Assembly (NCBI GenBank): GCA_029267355.1
Contig: JAJUJA010000002.1
Coordinates: 1,386 to 65,385, forward strand
Source: Elusimicrobiota bacterium
GTDB lineage: Bacteria; Elusimicrobiota; Elusimicrobia; Elusimicrobiales; UBA9959
Length of the DNA stretch: 64,000 bases
Direction: 5' to 3'
In this document: one piece after another, positions 3,369 to 64,000 of the stretch
Layout: every line of letters starts with the position of its first letter
Numbering within the stretch: the first letter of the stretch is position 1
Notes under the pieces: model-generated
Databases searched by the model: none
What the model was told of the DNA's origin: nothing
What the model saw: only the letters and a program-made list of their open reading frames with translations
Made by a program: the position numbers and the translations under genes

Positions 3369-4913
3369 TCACAATGAGGGCCCGCCTGAAATTATTCCCT
3401 GGTCTTTTATGGACAATTTTTTGAAATTTTCGGCAAACATGGAGGCCAGCTCTTTTTTCTTGCTTTCATAAGCCTTTTTGTCGGTCCAGGCTATGGACGG
3501 ATTAAGAACCGCAGGGTCGGCGCCGCCGAAATTCAAAGGTATTTCAAAGCCGAAAACAGGGTCTTTTTCGTATTTGACAGAGCTTTTATCTCCGGAAACG
3601 GCGAAATTCACTATGGCTCTAGTGTCTTTTATGCTTATTCTTTTGCCTATGCCGTAAGGCCCGCCGCAAAGGCCGGTATTTATAAGCCAGCACTCGGTTT
3701 TATGCTTTTGCATTTTTTCAGACAGCAATTGCGCATAAACTGTCGGATGCCAGCTCATAAAAGGCGCGCCGAAACAGGCGCTGAAAGTCGCTTTCGGCTC
3801 TTTTATGCCTATCTCAGTATTGGCGACCTTGGCGGTATAGCCTGAAACGAAATGATACATCGCCTGATTGTAATTAAGTTTGGATACCGGCGGCAATACG
3901 CCGAAAGCGTCATAGGTAAGCATCAAAATATTTTTAGGATGGCCGAAGGTATCGCCGAATACGGCATTGTCTATAAAATCAAGAGGATAACCTGCCCTAG
4001 TATTCTCAGTTCTTGAGCCGTCATTGAAATCCGGCAGACCGTTCTTGTCAAAAACCACATTTTCAAGCACGCACCCGAAACGGTTCACAGCCGCATATAT
4101 CTGCGGCTCGGCCTGTCTTGAAAGATTTATTACCTTGGCGTAGCAGCCCCCCTCAAAATTAAATATTCCCTTATCGTCCCAGCCGTGCTCATCGTCGCCT
4201 ATAAGCCCTCTCTGAGGATCGCTTGATAAGGTCGTCTTGCCTGTGCCTGAAAGTCCGAAGAAAAGCGCAGTATCGCCGTCCTTGCCGGCATTAGCCGAGC
4301 AATGCATCGGGAAAACCTTCTTTAAAGGCAGCAGATAATTCATCACGCTGAAAGCTGTTTTCTTTATCTCGCCGGCATAGCCGCTGCCGCCTATTATGGC
4401 CACTCTCTTTGCGAAATTTATTATTATAAAGGTCTCGCTTCTTGTGCCGTCAAAAAATGGATCCGCCTTGAATCCGGGCGCAGATATTATGGTGAAATCC
4501 GGATTATTGAAATCCTTAGAAGCGTTTCTGAAAAGATTTTTGACAAATAATGAGTGCCAGGCATATTCTGTCCACACATTGAGATTAATGGCATGCTCGC
4601 CGGCTCCTACGCTGCATTTCCTGAGATATACGTCTCTGGCTGACATATACTCTCTCAATCTGGCATAAAGCGAGTCAAATTTACTCTCTTCTATCGGTTT
4701 ATTATTCTCTCCCCACCATATGTTTTTTTCGGAAGAATGCTCCCTGACTATGAATTTGTCTTTGGCCGCGCGCGCCGTATGAAAACCCGTATTGACGGCC
4801 AAAGCGCCGGTGGACAGTATCCGTCCCTCGCCGTTTCTGACGGCATGCTCATAAAGCTCGCCGGCAGAAAGATTTATAAAAACCTTATTTTCGCTTTTTA
4901 TAAAAGTCTGCAT
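3369..4913 (-). CDS. pckA: Phosphoenolpyruvate carboxykinase (ATP)
   Basis: Length of 514 aa. Kinase-1a P-loop FFGLSGTGKTTLS and the conserved GDDEHGW and NFEGGCYAK blocks of ATP-dependent PEPCK. Confidence 0.95.
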   Translation of the reverse strand: MQTFIKSENKVFINLSAGELYEHAVRNGEGRILSTGALAVNTGFHTARAAKDKFIVREHSSEKNIWWGENNKPIEESKFDSLYARLREYMSARDVYLRKCSVGAGEHAINLNVWTEYAWHSLFVKNLFRNASKDFNNPDFTIISAPGFKADPFFDGTRSETFIIINFAKRVAIIGGSGYAGEIKKTAFSVMNYLLPLKKVFPMHCSANAGKDGDTALFFGLSGTGKTTLSSDPQRGLIGDDEHGWDDKGIFNFEGGCYAKVINLSRQAEPQIYAAVNRFGCVLENVVFDKNGLPDFNDGSRTENTRAGYPLDFIDNAVFGDTFGHPKNILMLTYDAFGVLPPVSKLNYNQAMYHFVSGYTAKVANTEIGIKEPKATFSACFGAPFMSWHPTVYAQLLSEKMQKHKTECWLINTGLCGGPYGIGKRISIKDTRAIVNFAVSGDKSSVKYEKDPVFGFEIPLNFGGADPAVLNPSIAWTDKKAYESKKKELASMFAENFKKLSIKDQGIISGGPSL

Positions 4914-57774: not shown

Positions 57775-57792
57775 AGTTTTCACGTGAAAACT
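57775..57792. promoter_or_regulatory. parS-like palindrome 2
   Basis: Perfect 18-bp palindrome AGTTTTCACGTGAAAACT with the same core as site 1. It overlaps the stop of the DUF2089-like gene and lies 12 nt upstream of the ATG at 57763. Confidence 0.7.
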
Positions 57793-58159
57793 ATTTTTTT
57801 ATATCTTTTATCATTTTTACGGCATCCTGAGCGGTTATCTCGCCCCTCTCAAGTTTTTTAAGTATTTCCATCTTTTTATTTTTAGCGTCAAAATCATAAT
57901 CGGATATACCCATTTTATTAACTATCTCTTCCAGCCTGGATTTAACAGTAGGATAAGAAATATTAAAAATTTTCTCCATCTCCTTTATCCTGCCGCCTGT
58001 AGCCAAAAAAACTTTAACAAATTCAAGCTCATTTTCATCAAGACAATCAAAAGAACTTAATTGGAATTTGCCTTTTATAGATGTGGAACAGGCATCACAG
58101 TGAAATTCGCTTATATGTATTTTGGAATTACACGATGGACATTTATTTGGCTTTTTCAT
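57791..58159 (-). CDS. DUF2089-like protein (N-terminal zinc ribbon plus C-terminal HTH)
   Basis: CPSC...x12...CDAC zinc ribbon, then FVKVFLATGGRIKEMEKIFNISYPTVKSRL (HTH), then a SHOCT-like tail LERGEITAQDAVKMI. I prefer the ATG at 58159, preceded by GGAG. The track start at 58195 is a TTG. Confidence 0.62.
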   Translation of the reverse strand: MKKPNKCPSCNSKIHISEFHCDACSTSIKGKFQLSSFDCLDENELEFVKVFLATGGRIKEMEKIFNISYPTVKSRLEEIVNKMGISDYDFDAKNKKMEILKKLERGEITAQDAVKMIKDIKK

Positions 58160-58208
58160 TTTAATAATCTCCAAATTAACTTTTTTAATAAGCAACTAAA
58201 TTTATTTA

Positions 58209-58238
58209 ATTTTAGAATAATTTTTATGAAATTGTCAA
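58209..58238 (-). promoter_or_regulatory. Candidate promoter of the DUF2089 / SHOCT-like / scramblase operon
   Basis: On the minus strand: TTGACA (58238->58233), an 18-nt spacer, then TAAAAT (58214->58209). Confidence 0.45.
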
Positions 58239-58302
58239 CTAAATTTTTAAAAATAAGTCCTCATAAGAAAATACAAGGCGTAGGCATAAAGGAGGGAATA
58301 AA

Positions 58303-58324
58303 AAAGGGGCCCGAAGGCCCCTTT
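58303..58324 (-). terminator. Rho-independent terminator after the repeat-protein gene
   Basis: The minus strand reads AAAGGGGCC-ttcg-GGCCCCTTT, followed by a T-run. Confidence 0.8.
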
Positions 58325-58340
58325 CTACTTGAAAGTTATT

Positions 58341-59318
58341 TTATTGCTGATTCAAGAAAACAAAGAAGTATTGAAGGAAATCATAAAGGTCGCAATTCTC
58401 AAGTTTAACCTCAACCGGAGCATGATTCATAGCGCCCTTGAGCTCGCCTGAGACTTTATCAAATGTAAGAGAAACAGGGGAATGATTGGCATATCCCTCA
58501 ATTTCCACAATATTCTCGCCGGCCTGCCCCTCTTTCATATCAAAGCTTAATTCCAGGGGTGAATTGTTTGAATAACCTTTTAGAGTGCCTTCTTTCCATT
58601 TGACTGTATAGTCCACGGGGCTTCTATTGGCGGCGCCGTATACTCTTACCTGAGAAACGCTCCAATCAAATTTAAGGTCTGAGTTTATTTGATTTACAGC
58701 GCCCTTTATGGTCTTTTCCTTATGGTCAATCTCAAGCCAAACAAAGCCGAGATTCAAATTACCTCTTATAACCCAGTTGATTTTATCCAACGTAAGATCC
58801 GCAGGGGCATAGTTCATAAGACCTTTAATAGTGCCGATTCTCACGGCATAAGCTGACTTAACAGAAAAAAGTTCATCATAAGTCTTTTTGCCGACCCTAA
58901 CTTCCTTCACATAATAGTATTTTGCCAGCCCCAGGGCTTCCGAGGCGGCATTTTTGCCTTTAAGGTCCGCTATTATGAAGTAAAAACCGGATCCGTCCTG
59001 ATAAGCGGAAACCTTAAATCCGTCCTTCTGTAAATCTTTCAAATAGAAATCAATGTCTCCAGGCTTAAGTATCAGTAAAACCGAATCATCGGCCTGAGGA
59101 TCTATTTCATTTACCTTTATCTTGGCCAGCGCCATGTTTTGCTGATTATATTTGCCGTTTTCGACGGAAAAACCGCTGTTCTGCGGGGCAGGTATGGCTG
59201 AAAAAGCTTCGGAGAAATCAACTGATTTAATCTCAGATCCAGCTCTGGAATTTTCAAAAGACTGAGAATAGCAGTTATATGAAAGAAACATTATGGCAGA
59301 AACTATAATTTTCACCAT
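58341..59318 (-). CDS. Secreted protein with about seven tandem short repeats in the C-terminal half
   Basis: I prefer the ATG at 59318 (MVKIIVSAIMFLS signal peptide), preceded by AGGAGG. The repeats have the form h-x-G-x-x-N-x-x-P-h-x-h-x-h-D, for example LKGYSNNSPLELSFD, IEGYANHSPVSLTFD and LKGAMNHAPVEVKLE. Confidence 0.55.
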   Translation of the reverse strand: MVKIIVSAIMFLSYNCYSQSFENSRAGSEIKSVDFSEAFSAIPAPQNSGFSVENGKYNQQNMALAKIKVNEIDPQADDSVLLILKPGDIDFYLKDLQKDGFKVSAYQDGSGFYFIIADLKGKNAASEALGLAKYYYVKEVRVGKKTYDELFSVKSAYAVRIGTIKGLMNYAPADLTLDKINWVIRGNLNLGFVWLEIDHKEKTIKGAVNQINSDLKFDWSVSQVRVYGAANRSPVDYTVKWKEGTLKGYSNNSPLELSFDMKEGQAGENIVEIEGYANHSPVSLTFDKVSGELKGAMNHAPVEVKLENCDLYDFLQYFFVFLNQQ

Positions 59319-59438
59319 CAAACCTCCTATTATTTGCTCACTTATATAATTCTCCAAAAAAATGAGGAAAAATCCTATAGACTTAGGGGCAAAATTTGGA
59401 AGTTTTTTGTGCCTGCTCAAAATAGGACTTAAGGGTAA

Positions 59439-60149
59439 ATGAAATTTGCTAAAATTAATCTCATGAGAAAAACAGAATTAATAACGGCTTTGGACCTTGA
59501 GCTTGACGAGGCTCAAGAGCTGGTTAAAACGCTGTCAAAGGATGTGAAATATTACAAAATAGGGCCGGTGCTTTTTATGCGCCACGGCCTCAAAGCGATA
59601 GAAATGGTAAAAAAATACGGGGGGGAAGTTTTTCTGGACCTGAAACTTCACGATATACCCAATACCGTAAAAGAAGCCATAGAAAACGCCAATAAACTGG
59701 GCATTTACTCAATTTCAATGCATATACTCGGCGGCCCCACTATGCTAAAAGCCGGAATTAATGCGGCAAAAAAACTGAAAATATGGGGCGTGACCATTTT
59801 GACAAGCATAGATCTCATAGAATTTCATAGAATAGGATTCAGATACAGCCTTGAAAAACAGGTTCAGCATCTTGCCAAACTGGCCAATGAAACTGAACTT
59901 GACGGCGTTATAGCCTCGCCGAGAGAGCTTTATTATTTAAGGAATACTCTGGGCGAAAAAATAAAAATCATAACCCCGTCAATAAGAATGGGCTCAACGC
60001 AAAAAGATCCTTTTGACGATCAAAAAAGATTTTTAACTCCGAAGGAAGCAAAGGAAAAAGGCGCCGATTTTATAGTGGTAGGCAGACCTATAACTCAGGC
60101 CAAAGACCCGCTAAAAGCCGCCAGGGAAATACTCAAGGAAATAGAATGA
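59439..60149 (+). CDS. pyrF: Orotidine 5'-phosphate decarboxylase
   Basis: LITALD...YKIG...FLDLKLHDIPNTV and the C-terminal VVGRPI blocks. The real start may be the ATG at 59463. Confidence 0.9.
   Translation: MKFAKINLMRKTELITALDLELDEAQELVKTLSKDVKYYKIGPVLFMRHGLKAIEMVKKYGGEVFLDLKLHDIPNTVKEAIENANKLGIYSISMHILGGPTMLKAGINAAKKLKIWGVTILTSIDLIEFHRIGFRYSLEKQVQHLAKLANETELDGVIASPRELYYLRNTLGEKIKIITPSIRMGSTQKDPFDDQKRFLTPKEAKEKGADFIVVGRPITQAKDPLKAAREILKEIE
59447..59455 (+). promoter_or_regulatory. Extended -10 (TGcTAAAAT) 7 nt upstream of an in-frame pyrF ATG at 59463; candidate leaderless promoter
   Basis: TGCTAAAAT at 59447-59455, TAATCTC, then ATG at 59463 (MRKTELITALD). Confidence 0.45.
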
Positions 60150-60706
60150 GAAATCTAAGGGAAATACTTGAAAAAAAGAAAGCCCTGCTTACGGGCCATT
60201 TTCTGCTTTCAAGCGGACTGCACAGCCCCAATTATGTTCAATGCGCCCTGGCCTTAAGCGACACAGCTCTGGCGCGCCAGCTTGGCAGGGCCCTGGCTGA
60301 AAAATGGAAAGGCCCCAAACCGGATATTATAGTTTCTCCCGCTATGGGGGGGATAATAATAGGCCATGAAACGGCCGCCGCTATGAAATTGCCCTTTTAT
60401 TTTACGGAGAGGGAAAACGGCGAAATGACATTGAGAAGAGGTTTCAAAATTGAAAAAGGCCGAAAGGTTTTAATAGTTGAAGATGTTTTCACAACAGGAA
60501 AATCCACGCTTGAAACAGCCAGGGCGCTGAAAAAGAGCAAAGCGAAAGTTATCGGCGCGCTGTCCATAGTGAACAGAATGGGGAAAAGAAGGCTGCCTTT
60601 GAAAAATTCCAGTCTCATAAAGATAGACATAAAAACATTCAGTCCTGAGAAATGCCCTCTCTGCAAACAGGGAATACCGGCGGTAAAACCGGGGAGCCGG
60701 AAATAA
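60146..60706 (+). CDS. pyrE: Orotate phosphoribosyltransferase
   Basis: GHFLLSSGLHS block and the PRPP-binding loop VLIVEDVFTTGKST. Confidence 0.9.
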   Translation: MRNLREILEKKKALLTGHFLLSSGLHSPNYVQCALALSDTALARQLGRALAEKWKGPKPDIIVSPAMGGIIIGHETAAAMKLPFYFTERENGEMTLRRGFKIEKGRKVLIVEDVFTTGKSTLETARALKKSKAKVIGALSIVNRMGKRRLPLKNSSLIKIDIKTFSPEKCPLCKQGIPAVKPGSRK

Positions 60707-60718
60707 AAAGGAGTTTTT

Positions 60719-62389
60719 ATGCCCACAGATATAGAAATAGCAAGACAGATAAAACTTAAGCATATACGCGATATTGCCGCCATGGCTTCAATAAAGGAAG
60801 ATGACCTTATATATTACGGCAAATACAAGGCGAAATTGCCTTTGAGCCTGATAAATGAGGAAAAGATCAAGAAGTCCAAATTAATACTTGTCTCCGCCAT
60901 AACACCCACTCCGGCCGGTGAAGGCAAAACTACAGTTTCCATAGGCCTTACCCTGGGCATGAACCGCATAGGCAAAAAAACCATAGTCGCTCTCAGAGAG
61001 CCTTCGCTCGGCCCGGTATTCGGCATAAAGGGCGGCGCCACAGGCGGAGGCTGGTCTCAGGTGCTTCCTATGGAGGACATAAATCTCCATTTCAATGGAG
61101 ATTTCGGCGCCATAGAAAAAGCGCATAATCTGCTTTCAGCTATAATAGACAACAATATACAGAACAAGAAGAACAATATAGGCCTGGATCCGAGAACCGT
61201 AACCTGGAAAAGGGTAATGGATATGAATGACAGGTCTTTAAGAAAAATAATAGTGGGGCTCGGCGGCACAATGAGCGGAGTGCCCCGCGAAACCGGTTTT
61301 GATATAACAGCGGCCAGCGAGGTTATGGCCATACTTTGCCTTTCCAAAGATCTACGCCATCTCAAAGAAAAACTTGGAAATATATTTATTGGCTACACCT
61401 ATGACAAGAAGCCGGTTTATGCCAGAGATCTCAAAGCTAACGGCGCCATGGCCGCTCTTTTGAAAGACGCCATAATGCCCAATCTAGTTCAAACAAGCGA
61501 AGGCACGCCGGCCATAATTCACGGCGGCCCTTTCGCCAATATAGCCCACGGGTGCAATTCAATAATAGCCACAAAAACGACGATGAGCCTGGCCGATTAC
61601 ACCGTAACCGAGGCCGGCTTCGCCTTTGAACTTGGCGCCGAAAAATTCCTTGATATAAAATGCAGATATGCCGGTCTTTCACCGTCGGCAGCCGTTCTTG
61701 TCGCCACGGTAAGAGCGCTCAAATATCACGGCGGAGCTTCCTTAAAAGATTTAAATACCCCTGACCCCGCCAAAGTGGCCAAAGGCCTTGAAAACCTTGA
61801 AAAGCATATAGAGAATATGAAACAGTTCAATATATGCCCTGTGGTGGCCATAAACAAATTCACTTCCGATACCCCTCAGGAAATAGAGGAAATAAAGAAA
61901 AAATGCGCTGAGCTCGGCGTGCCGGCAATAGAGGCGGATGTATGGGGCAAAGGCGGAGAAGGCGCCATTGAACTGGCTAAAAAGGTAAGCGAAATAGCCG
62001 ACGCTGCCAAATGCTCCTATTCGCCGATATATGAGCTGGAATGGAGCGTTGAGAAAAAGATAGAGACCATAGCGTCAAAAATGTACGGCGCTCAGCATAT
62101 AGACTATACAGCAAAAGCTAAAAAAGATCTTGAAAAAGTCTATAAACTCAATCTGGACAAATTGCCTGTATGCATAGCCAAGACGCAAAAATCTCTTTCA
62201 GACAATCCTGACCTTATAGGCAGGCCCAAGGATTTTGTCGTAACTGTAAGGGAAATAGAAATAGCCTCAGGCGCAGGCTTCATAATACCCATAACCGGCG
62301 AGATTATGCGTATGCCCGGGCTGCCCGAGCATCCAGCCGCCGAGAACATAGACATAGATGAATCAGGCAATATAAGCGGCCTGTTCTGA
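60719..62389 (+). CDS. fhs: Formate--tetrahydrofolate ligase
   Basis: PTDIEIA start, P-loop-like TPTPAGEGKTT, the PSLGPVFGIKGGATGGG block, 556 aa. Confidence 0.96.
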   Translation: MPTDIEIARQIKLKHIRDIAAMASIKEDDLIYYGKYKAKLPLSLINEEKIKKSKLILVSAITPTPAGEGKTTVSIGLTLGMNRIGKKTIVALREPSLGPVFGIKGGATGGGWSQVLPMEDINLHFNGDFGAIEKAHNLLSAIIDNNIQNKKNNIGLDPRTVTWKRVMDMNDRSLRKIIVGLGGTMSGVPRETGFDITAASEVMAILCLSKDLRHLKEKLGNIFIGYTYDKKPVYARDLKANGAMAALLKDAIMPNLVQTSEGTPAIIHGGPFANIAHGCNSIIATKTTMSLADYTVTEAGFAFELGAEKFLDIKCRYAGLSPSAAVLVATVRALKYHGGASLKDLNTPDPAKVAKGLENLEKHIENMKQFNICPVVAINKFTSDTPQEIEEIKKKCAELGVPAIEADVWGKGGEGAIELAKKVSEIADAAKCSYSPIYELEWSVEKKIETIASKMYGAQHIDYTAKAKKDLEKVYKLNLDKLPVCIAKTQKSLSDNPDLIGRPKDFVVTVREIEIASGAGFIIPITGEIMRMPGLPEHPAAENIDIDESGNISGLF

Positions 62390-62593
62390 GAACGGATTAA
62401 TTAGTGAACCTGTTCATTCAATTTATATGCTTTCTCTATGTAGAGGCATATATGCCTCAGCCGATATCTGATCATTCATAAATTTGAGATTGAACAAGTT
62501 TTCATCTCCATTAAGTTTAGAAGAACTTGCAATATCGAATAAATAATGCTAGGAAATATTTAAGACCTACTGCTTATTCAGGGCAAAATAGAA

Positions 62594-62986
62594 ATGGGCA
62601 ACCCGAGAAAAATATTCTTCGTAATGGCCGGAGGGGGACAGGATACAGACCGCCATCACAACGATGCCATCAAAAACAGACGCAGCATAAGCGAATTCAA
62701 ACATTTTTTAAAGGAATCCGAAGCGAACCTTCTTTCTGAAAGAACCTGCGGCAGGCCATGTGCAGTTTGGGGGGCCATCCAGGGTCCAAGCAATATAAGG
62801 AATTGGGATAATATGCAGGCCGGGGACTATGTTATGGTCTACCGGGAAGGCAAAACAATTCTCCCCGCTGAAATGGCTCTAAAAATCAAGAATCCCGAAC
62901 TCGCTAGTTATTTCTGGGAAGAAGACGACAAATTAAATTTCATGGAGAACGATTATGTCAATAGACTGGGTTTTCCCGCCGTTTAA
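62594..62986 (+). CDS. Hypothetical protein (possible small beta-barrel/PUA-like fold); overlaps the next ORF by 32 nt
   Basis: This is an ORF-only call. The segment CAVWGAIQGPSNIRNWDNMQAGDYVMVYREGK resembles the W-G...N..W..M..GD.V..Y pattern of small nucleic-acid-binding barrels. That resemblance is a weak impression only. Confidence 0.35.
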   Translation: MGNPRKIFFVMAGGGQDTDRHHNDAIKNRRSISEFKHFLKESEANLLSERTCGRPCAVWGAIQGPSNIRNWDNMQAGDYVMVYREGKTILPAEMALKIKNPELASYFWEEDDKLNFMENDYVNRLGFPAV

Positions 62987-64000
62987 CGGCGGGATTGAGC
63001 AAGGATTTGGACATTCGGGAATTCAGTATTTTGAGGGTAATCATGCCACCTGGGTCGCACGTGAAGCAATTCAAAATAGCCTAGACGCTAAGTTTTCGGG
63101 CACAGGATCTAGCTCACCAATCATCGTAGAATTTGAACTAACTCACATAGAAGTTTCCGAAATTCCAGGCATAAAAAAACTAAAAGAAGTATTTAAATTT
63201 TGCCGCGAGCGCGTTATAGAGATAGGCGGAGACACGCCGGAAGAAAAGGAAAAACCATCCTCTGCTATTAATTTCTTTAACAGAGCTATTGAAATATCCG
63301 GAAAAATCCCAGTTCTCGTAATAAGAGATTTTAACACTACGGGTCTAGCCGGCGATGATTTTTCACGTAATTCTCAATGGTATCGCCTCATTAGAAGCAG
63401 CGGGGTAAACAAATTCATAAACGATGGAGCTGGAAGCCATGGAATCGGGAAGTTTGCCCCATTTGCTGCTTCATTTTTGCGTTTAGTATTTTATTCAACA
63501 GTTTCTGATAGTGGAGAAAAAGCTTTTATTGGAAAGTCAATATTGACTAGTTTTAACAACGGCAAAGATGAATGTGATGCTACCGGATTTTATTGTTTAC
63601 AAAAAAAAGATGAAAATGGACGAACACAAGTTGCCGGAATACGAGACAGCGGCAATATACCAAGCTTCTTTAATCGTTCCGAACAAGGAACTTCTCTGTA
63701 TATCATAGGATACCGCCACGAAACAGATTGGGAAAAAGGGCTAATCGACTCCGTCCTTAAAAACTATTACGCAGCGATACACCGCAAAAAACTCATAATT
63801 AAATTCAAAGATTCTACTAGATCACATGAAATAAATGACCAAAATATTCGAAAAATAATGGAAGAAAATAAGAACTCTGCACTGCCTTTTTATCTTTCTA
63901 TTTCAGACCAAAGCTCTTATAAAAAATTTAATGCAAAACTTCCGATTATAGGCGAATGCAGCCTGTACGTTTTAAGAGGCTCAGACCCTGATCTTTATAC
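62955..64000 (+). CDS. GHKL/Bergerat-fold ATPase-like protein, 5' partial (runs off the window); absent from the supplied ORF track
   Basis: I translated by hand from the ATG at 62955 and found no stop through 64000 (348 codons). The N-box is AREAIQNSLDA (E37, N41, D44; E37 codon at 63063). The G1-like segment is VIRDFNTTGLAG and the G2-like segment is GAGSHGIGKF. Confidence 0.7.
   Translation, partial: MSIDWVFPPFNGGIEQGFGHSGIQYFEGNHATWVAREAIQNSLDAKFSGTGSSSPIIVEFELTHIEVSEIPGIKKLKEVFKFCRERVIEIGGDTPEEKEKPSSAINFFNRAIEISGKIPVLVIRDFNTTGLAGDDFSRNSQWYRLIRSSGVNKFINDGAGSHGIGKFAPFAASFLRLVFYSTVSDSGEKAFIGKSILTSFNNGKDECDATGFYCLQKKDENGRTQVAGIRDSGNIPSFFNRSEQGTSLYIIGYRHETDWEKGLIDSVLKNYYAAIHRKKLIIKFKDSTRSHEINDQNIRKIMEENKNSALPFYLSISDQSSYKKFNAKLPIIGECSLYVLRGSDPDLY

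Follow-up and report, generated by a model that had tools for sequence, protein, structure and literature searches.

A PDC-M33A-type GHKL ATPase gene and a reader-domain ORF at the probable left edge of a defence island downstream of fhs in an Elusimicrobiota genome

The DNA analysed here, a stretch of 64,000 nt from contig JAJUJA010000002.1 of an Elusimicrobiota bacterium (the window), ends at base 64000 inside a gene for a GHKL-type ATPase. This gene lies downstream of fhs and overlaps a short open reading frame (ORF) of 130 amino acids (aa), ORF130. Judged by its profile match, the ATPase is a new member of PDC-M33A, a catalogued, experimentally uncharacterised family. Overall, we read the segment 62390-64000, with a probability of roughly 0.7, as the left border of a defence island that varies between strains, in which the ATPase heads an A-B-C gene cassette and ORF130 is an unrelated relic of a restriction gene.

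The locus downstream of fhs

The fhs gene (60719-62389) is followed by a spacer of 204 nt (62390-62593, no strand assigned) that forms the left edge of the variable region and has a GC content of 0.32 in a window with a mean GC of 0.438. The promoter region of both ORF130 and the ATPase gene is presumed to lie in this spacer; in 62300-64000, no consensus sigma-70 promoter on the plus strand, no terminator, no notable or inverted repeat and no tRNA was found. ORF130 (62594-62986, plus strand) is predicted to encode a PUA/EVE/YTH-like reader domain without a nuclease. The ATPase gene starts on the same strand at the ATG at 62955, and its N-terminal 348 codons (62955-64000) fill the remainder of the window in a frame that is still open at the edge. 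The two genes are read in different frames and overlap by 32 nt. A GGAG ribosome-binding site for the ATPase gene, as read from the sequence, lies within the tail of ORF130 (62944-62947, plus strand), 7 nt ahead of the ATG. The coordinates of both frames, the translation of the ATPase fragment and the overlap had been given in the original prediction, which had been made from the DNA letters without database searches, and all of them were confirmed.

Two remarks on composition and spacing needed qualification. The region had been called AT-rich, which is true of the spacer and of the ATPase fragment, whose GC content of 0.388 falls into the 7th percentile among windows of equal length and whose GC content at third codon positions (GC3) is 0.31. 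It is not true of ORF130 (GC 0.458), which has the same GC3 of 0.50 as fhs. The spacer had been described as atypically long, and with 204 nt it is indeed long compared to the median intergenic gap of 9 nt. However, it is not unique, since it ranks sixth largest of 61 gaps (90th percentile 145 nt). Elsewhere in the window, the segment 57500-58500 shows the lowest GC content of its surroundings (0.29-0.34) and covers a Cys-rich ORF of 134 aa on the minus strand (57791-58195) as well as the start of a 359-aa ORF.

The left boundary could be placed by comparison with related genomes. Through a Logan protein from the 90%-identity cluster of the Fhs of the window, three contigs were identified on which pyrF, pyrE and fhs are arranged in this order as well. 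The window is 76% identical to these three related genomes at the nucleotide level from 58170 to 62385, and the similarity stops with the fhs stop codon. In these genomes, a gene for an 878-aa protein with BNR/Sortilin repeats follows 76 nt after fhs (4265-6901 in contig L097, 4108-6747 in L098), and blastn found no similarity to this gene anywhere within the 64-kb window. The BNR-repeat gene could serve as a marker for the opposite border of the island. As synteny with all three relatives breaks at the fhs stop, the sequence from 62390 onward is variable between related genomes. The boundary directly supports the earlier suggestion that the edge of a defence or conflict island lies here, and we consider it probable that 62390-64000 is the left edge of such a strain-variable island.

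The ATPase and its family

The ATG at 62955 is the native start of the ATPase gene, because an alignment with 30 homologues shows M1, W5, F7 and P8 to be almost invariant and the homologues begin at the same point. The same alignment, 31 sequences including the protein of the window, was used to judge the invariance of the ATP-binding motifs. Motif I, the N-box of GHKL ATPases, is encoded at 63063-63089 (plus strand) as E37-A-I-Q-N-S-L-D-A45 inside REAIQNSLDA; E37, Q40, N41, S42, L43, D44 and A45 are invariant. The box thereby keeps the ExxxNxxD form through E37, N41 and D44, with an intact catalytic glutamate and the magnesium-binding asparagine. Motif II, the G1 box (63327-63344, plus strand), has the variant form D125-F-N-T-T-G130 with the invariant residues D125 (the adenine-binding aspartate), N127, T128 and G130. 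It reads DxNTTG where the canonical motif is DxGxG, the middle glycine being replaced by the invariant N127/T128. Motif III, the G2 box or ATP lid (63432-63452, plus strand), reads G160-S-H-G-I-G-K166, and G160, G163, G165 and K166 are invariant. Motif IV (63687-63692, plus strand) consists of G245-T246 and is present in at least 90% of the sequences. The N-box and the G1- and G2-like segments picked out before from the translation alone are thus real and invariant across the alignment.

An AlphaFold (AF2) model of the 348-aa fragment reached a mean predicted local distance difference test score (pLDDT) of 86 and a predicted template modelling score (pTM) of 0.86, with the lid loop 151-161 as the sole segment of low confidence. 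A Foldseek search of the Protein Data Bank (PDB) with this model gave 47 matches at E≤1e-3, and all of them are Hsp90/GRP94/TRAP1, MutL, GyrB/ParE, TopoVI-B or SMCHD1 structures. Template modelling (TM) scores range from 0.3 to 0.45, with SMCHD1 as the best match (0.45) and MutL LN40 among the top matches. Residues 259-340 of the model form an alpha+beta region, and the full-length matches are to two-domain GHL modules. Based on motifs and model, the 62955 frame is predicted to encode a GHKL/Bergerat ATPase of the GHL type, and the window holds the Bergerat ATP-binding fold and the start of a transducer-like domain of a protein of about 600-650 aa. A conserved R-x-S-G-M of the relatives, the candidate for the basic residue that an S5-like transducer domain of GHL proteins contributes to the active site, falls past residue 348 and thus outside the window.

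The family assignment comes from PADLOC, in which the fragment matches only the PDC-M33A model (E 1.3e-82, 276.5 bits). Residues 1-344 align to positions 1-326 of the 627 positions of the profile, hence about half of the ATPase lies beyond the window. Scans of the fragment against Pfam (at E≤1) and NCBIfam gave no match. This includes HATPase_c_3, for which a comparison had been proposed and which, like every other Pfam family, was also absent at E≤1 from a full-length relative from locus L007. Nor did Pfam and NCBIfam reveal a HisKA/HATPase_c, HSP90 or DNA_gyraseB/TOPRIM family in the fragment or in full-length relatives, or DNA_mis_repair in the fragment, and a search of PDB sequences with the ATPase profile found nothing. 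An Hma-like or HEF_HK/Response_reg_2 system was also considered and rejected, as PADLOC returned PDC-M33A alone and HATPase_c_3 was absent. Taken together, the PDC-M33A match, the structural matches and the lack of any kinase, Hsp90 or topoisomerase family bear out the initial view of a stand-alone GHKL ATPase of the MORC/MutL-like kind found in conflict systems.

The family is spread thinly. Among 5.8 billion protein cluster representatives, 74 homologues (E≤1e-3) were found, which are at most 40% identical and carry no Pfam domain; full-length relatives measure about 590-650 aa. A scan of one genome per species (185,579 GTDB species genomes) gave at least 440 loci, and the best match among those listed is 41% identical. 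They occur sporadically in Saccharimonadia, Bacillota, Proteobacteria, Planctomycetota, Nitrospirota, Melainabacteria-type cyanobacteria and others. Relatives are also found on eight IMG/VR viral contigs. An exact 44-mer search of metagenomes of the Joint Genome Institute (JGI) returned 0 matches.

The A-B-C cassette in other genomes and its proposed function

To describe the gene neighbourhood of the family, ORFs were called in 85 related loci and classified with reference proteins; the counts given here refer to the 83 distinct loci. We designate the ATPase as A, PDC-M33B (about 285 aa, no known family) as B and PDC-M33C, a DUF6339 protein, as C. In loci L001-L003, A is followed by a protein of about 240-275 aa and then by a DUF6339 protein, which match PADLOC PDC-M33B and PDC-M33C/DUF6339; a C5 cytosine methylase adjoins the genes and Vsr is present in one of these loci. 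B follows A in 79 of the 83 loci and C is present in 79 as well, the exceptions being mostly cut contigs. A Dcm-type C5 methylase is encoded within 5 kb in 53/83 loci, or in 41 of the 52 whose sequence extends for 3 kb or more in both directions. In 39 loci it lies immediately upstream and in 11 it lies immediately downstream of C, and 20 of the 83 loci encode Vsr. In seven loci a HhH-GPD glycosylase adjoins the cassette (e.g. L013, 13420-14109, and six further loci), and these glycosylases probably take the T:G-repair role that Vsr has in the 20 other loci. In line with the earlier expectation of multi-gene systems beside DNA methyltransferases, the relatives always stand at the head of a multi-gene cassette, usually with a C5 methylase next to it. 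The Z1/AIPR partners named as examples are not those of this family, which are PDC-M33B and DUF6339.

In L002, Dcm-A-B-C stands alone amid genes for respiratory complexes (Nuo/Rnf-type), an arrangement characteristic of a mobile unit that is complete in itself. Other neighbours of the cassette include AbiE, a KAP NTPase, type I and type II restriction-modification systems and PLD-helicase nucleases. Proteins with a PLD nuclease and a ResIII helicase are encoded beside the cassette in 11 loci (e.g. L023, 4708-7137) and NgoFVII-like B3-domain proteins in six (e.g. L011, 13416-14567); these genes represent a second, NgoAVII/CglI-like type of restriction system in the same islands. L046 carries two A genes in tandem cassettes (at 3979 and about 10004), and L074 has an extra B-C upstream of Dcm-A; rearranged or shortened copies exist in some genomes.

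A conserved gene for a 75-aa protein directly precedes A in 30-35 loci, often with an overlap of 4 nt (e.g. L006, 475-690; L007, 9768-9983; L055, 6105-6332). Its product carries the motif RFxRLAEARTNKI..LLGNCSN..NYEYT..D..KIF, belongs to no Pfam, NCBIfam, PHROG or PADLOC family and may act as a fourth part of the cassette or control it. Conserved residues are P9, V10, D15, D16, G129 and W229 in B and N65, R101, W102 and an LWW motif in C. PDB profile searches with B and C yielded only chance matches (CENP-M at E 1.2 and a designed repeat protein), and NCBIfam and PHROGs scans of the 75-aa protein, A, B and C found nothing.

This neighbourhood also bears on the possibility that the gene encodes an ordinary housekeeping GHKL protein, i.e. 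a two-component histidine kinase or a paralogue of Hsp90, GyrB/ParE or MutL. Such a protein would share the Bergerat fold and could account for the structural matches to Hsp90, MutL and GyrB. However, those matches reach TM-scores of 0.3-0.45 only, and Pfam HATPase_c, HisKA, HSP90, DNA_gyraseB and DNA_mis_repair are all absent at E≤1. A sporadic spread over unrelated phyla, with at least 440 loci in 185,579 species genomes, and a fixed A-B-C context are unlike such genes. Because of the missing family matches and this context, a kinase, Hsp90 or topoisomerase paralogue is excluded for practical purposes.

The closest description of the family in the literature appears to be that of paraMORC2. 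Iyer, Abhiman and Aravind (2008; PMC2292703) describe prokaryotic MORCs and five 'paraMORC' families with GHKL and S5 domains in restriction-modification neighbourhoods with cytosine methylases and Vsr. For paraMORC2, they report that the C-terminal part of S5 conserves an ExxxH motif, that Dcm and Vsr are neighbours and that the distribution is biased towards Gram-positive bacteria and cyanobacteria. The family analysed here likewise has a GHKL domain followed by an alpha+beta domain, and its relatives share the Dcm and Vsr neighbours and are distributed patchily, with many members in Gram-positives and in lineages related to cyanobacteria. An E-x-P-x-H of the ExxxH type is present in 71 of 77 full-length relatives; it lies past residue 348, beyond the window. 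In contrast, PMC2292703 stresses SF-II helicases and RE-fold nucleases, whereas the constant partners of the relatives are B and C and helicase-nucleases are found in 11 loci. In the window itself, the side upstream of A holds ORF130 and fhs and no methylase. Still, the PDC-M33A family is probably paraMORC2. With regard to PADLOC PDC-M33, the fragment matches model A and the neighbours of the relatives match B and C in the order A-B-C, but the 75-aa gene of many loci matches no PADLOC model and the window shows no more than the first 326 positions of A. MORC proper, MutL and SMCHD1 (GHL) share the fold and all four ATP motifs with the fragment; they differ in a sequence identity of 10-14%, in the missing HATPase_c_3 and MutL family matches and in the G1 box. 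VcSduA, a paraMORC3-type Shedu protein in which a GHKL ATPase is fused to a DUF4263 nuclease, protects against phage (PMC12137116), therefore paraMORC-type ATPases can act in defence. There the GHKL ATPase is the regulatory module of a proven anti-phage system with a fused nuclease, whereas A, B and C contain no recognisable nuclease and give no PADLOC match to Shedu.

By analogy with MutL activating MutH or Vsr and with the ATP-gated clamps of MORC and the topoisomerases, we infer the following scheme for the cassette. The methylase would mark the cell's own DNA. A dimer of A would clamp on DNA or on its partners through ATP binding and hydrolysis, and with A in its closed form, B and/or C would be licensed to act on unmarked DNA, either by cutting or by blocking it. 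The ATPase domains of MutL, MORC and type II topoisomerases close when ATP binds. The cassette as a whole would be a multi-subunit, ATP-dependent restriction module.

The main functional rival to such a restriction module is a role in repair: the cassette might serve C5 methylases as a MutL-like accessory that recruits Vsr or a glycosylase to the T:G mismatches left by deamination of 5-methylcytosine. This would agree with the fact that the cassette is accompanied by Dcm, by Vsr in 20 loci and by HhH-GPD glycosylases in 7, and that B and C lack a visible nuclease motif. E. coli MutL stimulates Vsr, as discussed in PMC2292703. However, Vsr or a glycosylase is found in only about one third of the loci, whereas B and C are constant. 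Moreover, the cassette crosses phyla, adjoins defence genes and occurs on the eight viral contigs, and the authors of PADLOC chose PDC-M33 as a defence-island candidate. We give the repair role little credence compared to a restriction module.

ORF130 and the state of the locus

An exhaustive HMMER search of 1.84 billion representatives identified 236 relatives of ORF130 (E≤1e-3). In most of them, the matching region corresponds to the N-terminal 110-125 residues of a longer protein, and many comprise 320-610 aa. Several end in a nuclease: P0086, P0093 and P0099 have a C-terminal HNH domain, and P0093 matches the PADLOC model for Type IV modification-dependent restriction enzymes (mREase_IV); P0094 has a NucS_C/PD-(D/E)xK end, and the closest full-length relatives, P0078 and P0084, have a REase_II-like end. 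P0085 carries ParB_N. Although Pfam and NCBIfam scans of ORF130 found nothing, its family profile matched the N-terminal domain of McrB from Thermococcus gammatolerans in the PDB (6p0f, E 0.0028), with the EVE protein 2ar1 at E 0.12. The AF2 model of ORF130 has a pLDDT of 89, and the top Foldseek matches are again 6p0f and 6p0g, the latter bound to DNA with 5-methylcytosine (m5C), with a probability of 1.00 and TM-scores of 0.62 and 0.58. EVE, THYN1 and ASCH entries come next in the list at non-significant E-values. From profile and model, ORF130 is a PUA-like domain of the EVE/McrB-N type and a predicted reader of modified DNA. It resembles the McrB N-domain of T. gammatolerans and the Type IV enzymes that join a PUA/EVE domain to a nuclease, in view of the matches to 6p0f and 6p0g and the HNH and REase_II ends of its relatives. 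It differs from the T. gammatolerans McrB in having no nuclease or motor domain, a degenerate last strand and an identity of about 13%. Residues 61-98 of ORF130 are matched in 30 separate stretches by P0075, a giant repeat protein of 7691 aa whose repeats consist of part of the reader-domain motif.

The overlap of ORF130 with the start of the ATPase gene had been taken to suggest that the two are co-translated partners. However, an ORF130-like domain was found in none of the 83 distinct loci (85 scanned), either by single-sequence phmmer or with the family hidden Markov model (HMM) at E≤1, and the idea that ORF130 homologues always precede such ATPases finds no support in these loci. ORF130 belongs to an unrelated family and looks truncated. 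It contains neither an HNH nor a PD-(D/E)xK domain and ends at residue 130, just past the reader domain, whereas its closest relatives run on for another 80-250 residues. The last conserved strand of the family, TWExxYF, has become NFMENDY, and the near-invariant T25 is replaced by alanine. Full-length relatives have a linker to which the final residues of ORF130 can be aligned weakly when two gaps are allowed, and this would fit internal deletions. Two other close relatives are themselves stubs of 92 and 81 aa. Finally, a GC3 of 0.50 in ORF130 as against 0.31 in the ATPase gene points to different histories of the two genes. Based on its early end, the degenerate strand and T25, the linker alignment, the stub relatives, the GC3 gap and its absence from related loci, ORF130 is probably the truncated relic of a gene for a reader-nuclease restriction enzyme. 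According to this scenario, ORF130 would be the reader of an older restriction-enzyme gene whose nuclease end was lost at or near the present start of the AT-richer cassette, and the 32-nt overlap would arise because the broken frame continues to the first stop inside the ATPase gene.

Two further origins of ORF130 were rejected. It is not a local version of the 75-aa gene, as the HMM of that gene finds nothing in the six frames of 62300-63050. Nor is it one half of a reader-GHKL fusion split by a frameshift, since the ATPase aligns from M1 with homologues that start there. The closest named relative is the 92-aa stub, encoded between uvrB and uvrA in a metagenome-assembled genome of Minisyncoccia (L086, 3077-3355; also in L087), a lineage of the candidate phyla radiation. 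This suggests that the reader-nuclease gene is decaying in several small genomes.

Alternatively, ORF130 could be a working partner of the ATPase, a stand-alone reader of 5-methylcytosine or another modified base that is translationally coupled to it and would render the cassette, here without an upstream methylase, modification-dependent in a Type IV-like manner. McrB, matched here through the PDB entries 6p0f, 6p0g and 6ut5, couples such a reader domain to an NTPase motor. The 32-nt overlap, the position of A without a methylase or a 75-aa gene ahead of it, the confident domain model closest to the McrB N-domain bound to m5C-DNA and the occurrence of short versions (117-126 aa) in databases would all be compatible with a partner. 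This is nevertheless improbable given that the domain is missing from all 83 loci even at an HMM threshold of E≤1, that A possesses its own GGAG and native start, and that the GC3 values differ. The changed strand and T25 and a tail that resembles the collapsed linker of full-length relatives, together with the stubs among close relatives, also speak for a relic. A specific form of this idea, in which an m5C-type reader would be wired by translational coupling to a methylase-less paraMORC2/PDC-M33 cassette, is a long shot. If true, it would mean that a protected restriction module has turned modification-dependent, a natural swap of the sensing head in a GHKL-driven defence machine.

Several points weigh against our interpretation of the locus as the edge of a defence island with an A-B-C cassette and a restriction-gene relic. 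The window contains only half of gene A, and B, C and any methylase are presumed for this genome from relatives that are at most 41% identical. Neither a methylase nor the 75-aa gene precedes A here, unlike in its closest relatives, L006 and L007. The assignment to paraMORC2 follows from the text description of that family rather than from published sequences, and in the paper library that was searched for DUF6339, PDC-M33 and paraMORC2, no experimental work on the system was found. B and C show no nuclease motif, no likeness to a solved structure and, DUF6339 aside, no match to a curated family, and the effector step assigned to them is a guess. In the collection of 15 billion proteins used for comparison, ORF130, Fhs, PyrE and two 580-aa proteins of the window are stored (from one NCBI contig of 138,633 nt), but a match to A is absent and nothing is more than 41% identical to the ATPase fragment. 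The source record could treat the gene as a pseudogene, or there could be a gap in storage.

This last point raises the question of whether only a remnant in decay is left of the ATPase gene, or even of the cassette as a whole, broken past the edge of the window and cut off from its methylase and the 75-aa gene. The missing protein in a collection that does hold five others from the same contig, the loss of Dcm and the 75-aa gene that precede A in the closest relatives and the vicinity of ORF130, itself a relic, could be explained in this way. Still, the 348 visible codons contain no stop, none of the family-invariant residues has changed and the model of the fragment reaches a pLDDT of 86. 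The methylase may simply be out of view, as Dcm lies downstream of C in 11 of the 83 loci, and the absence from the collection may be the storage gap mentioned. We consider decay of the ATPase gene or of the cassette unlikely.

The contribution of the window itself is small and consists of half a gene, a cleanly defined boundary of the island and, beside the gene, the relic of a reader domain. The family to which the gene belongs is widespread, and comparative genomics has drawn attention to it on two occasions, under the name paraMORC2 in 2008 and under PDC-M33 in PADLOC. A mechanism that combines a MutL/MORC-like ATP clamp with a cytosine methylase and two proteins of unknown function would extend the range of restriction-type immunity and would also bear on how DNA methylation is read by the eukaryotic MORC and SMCHD1 ATPases.

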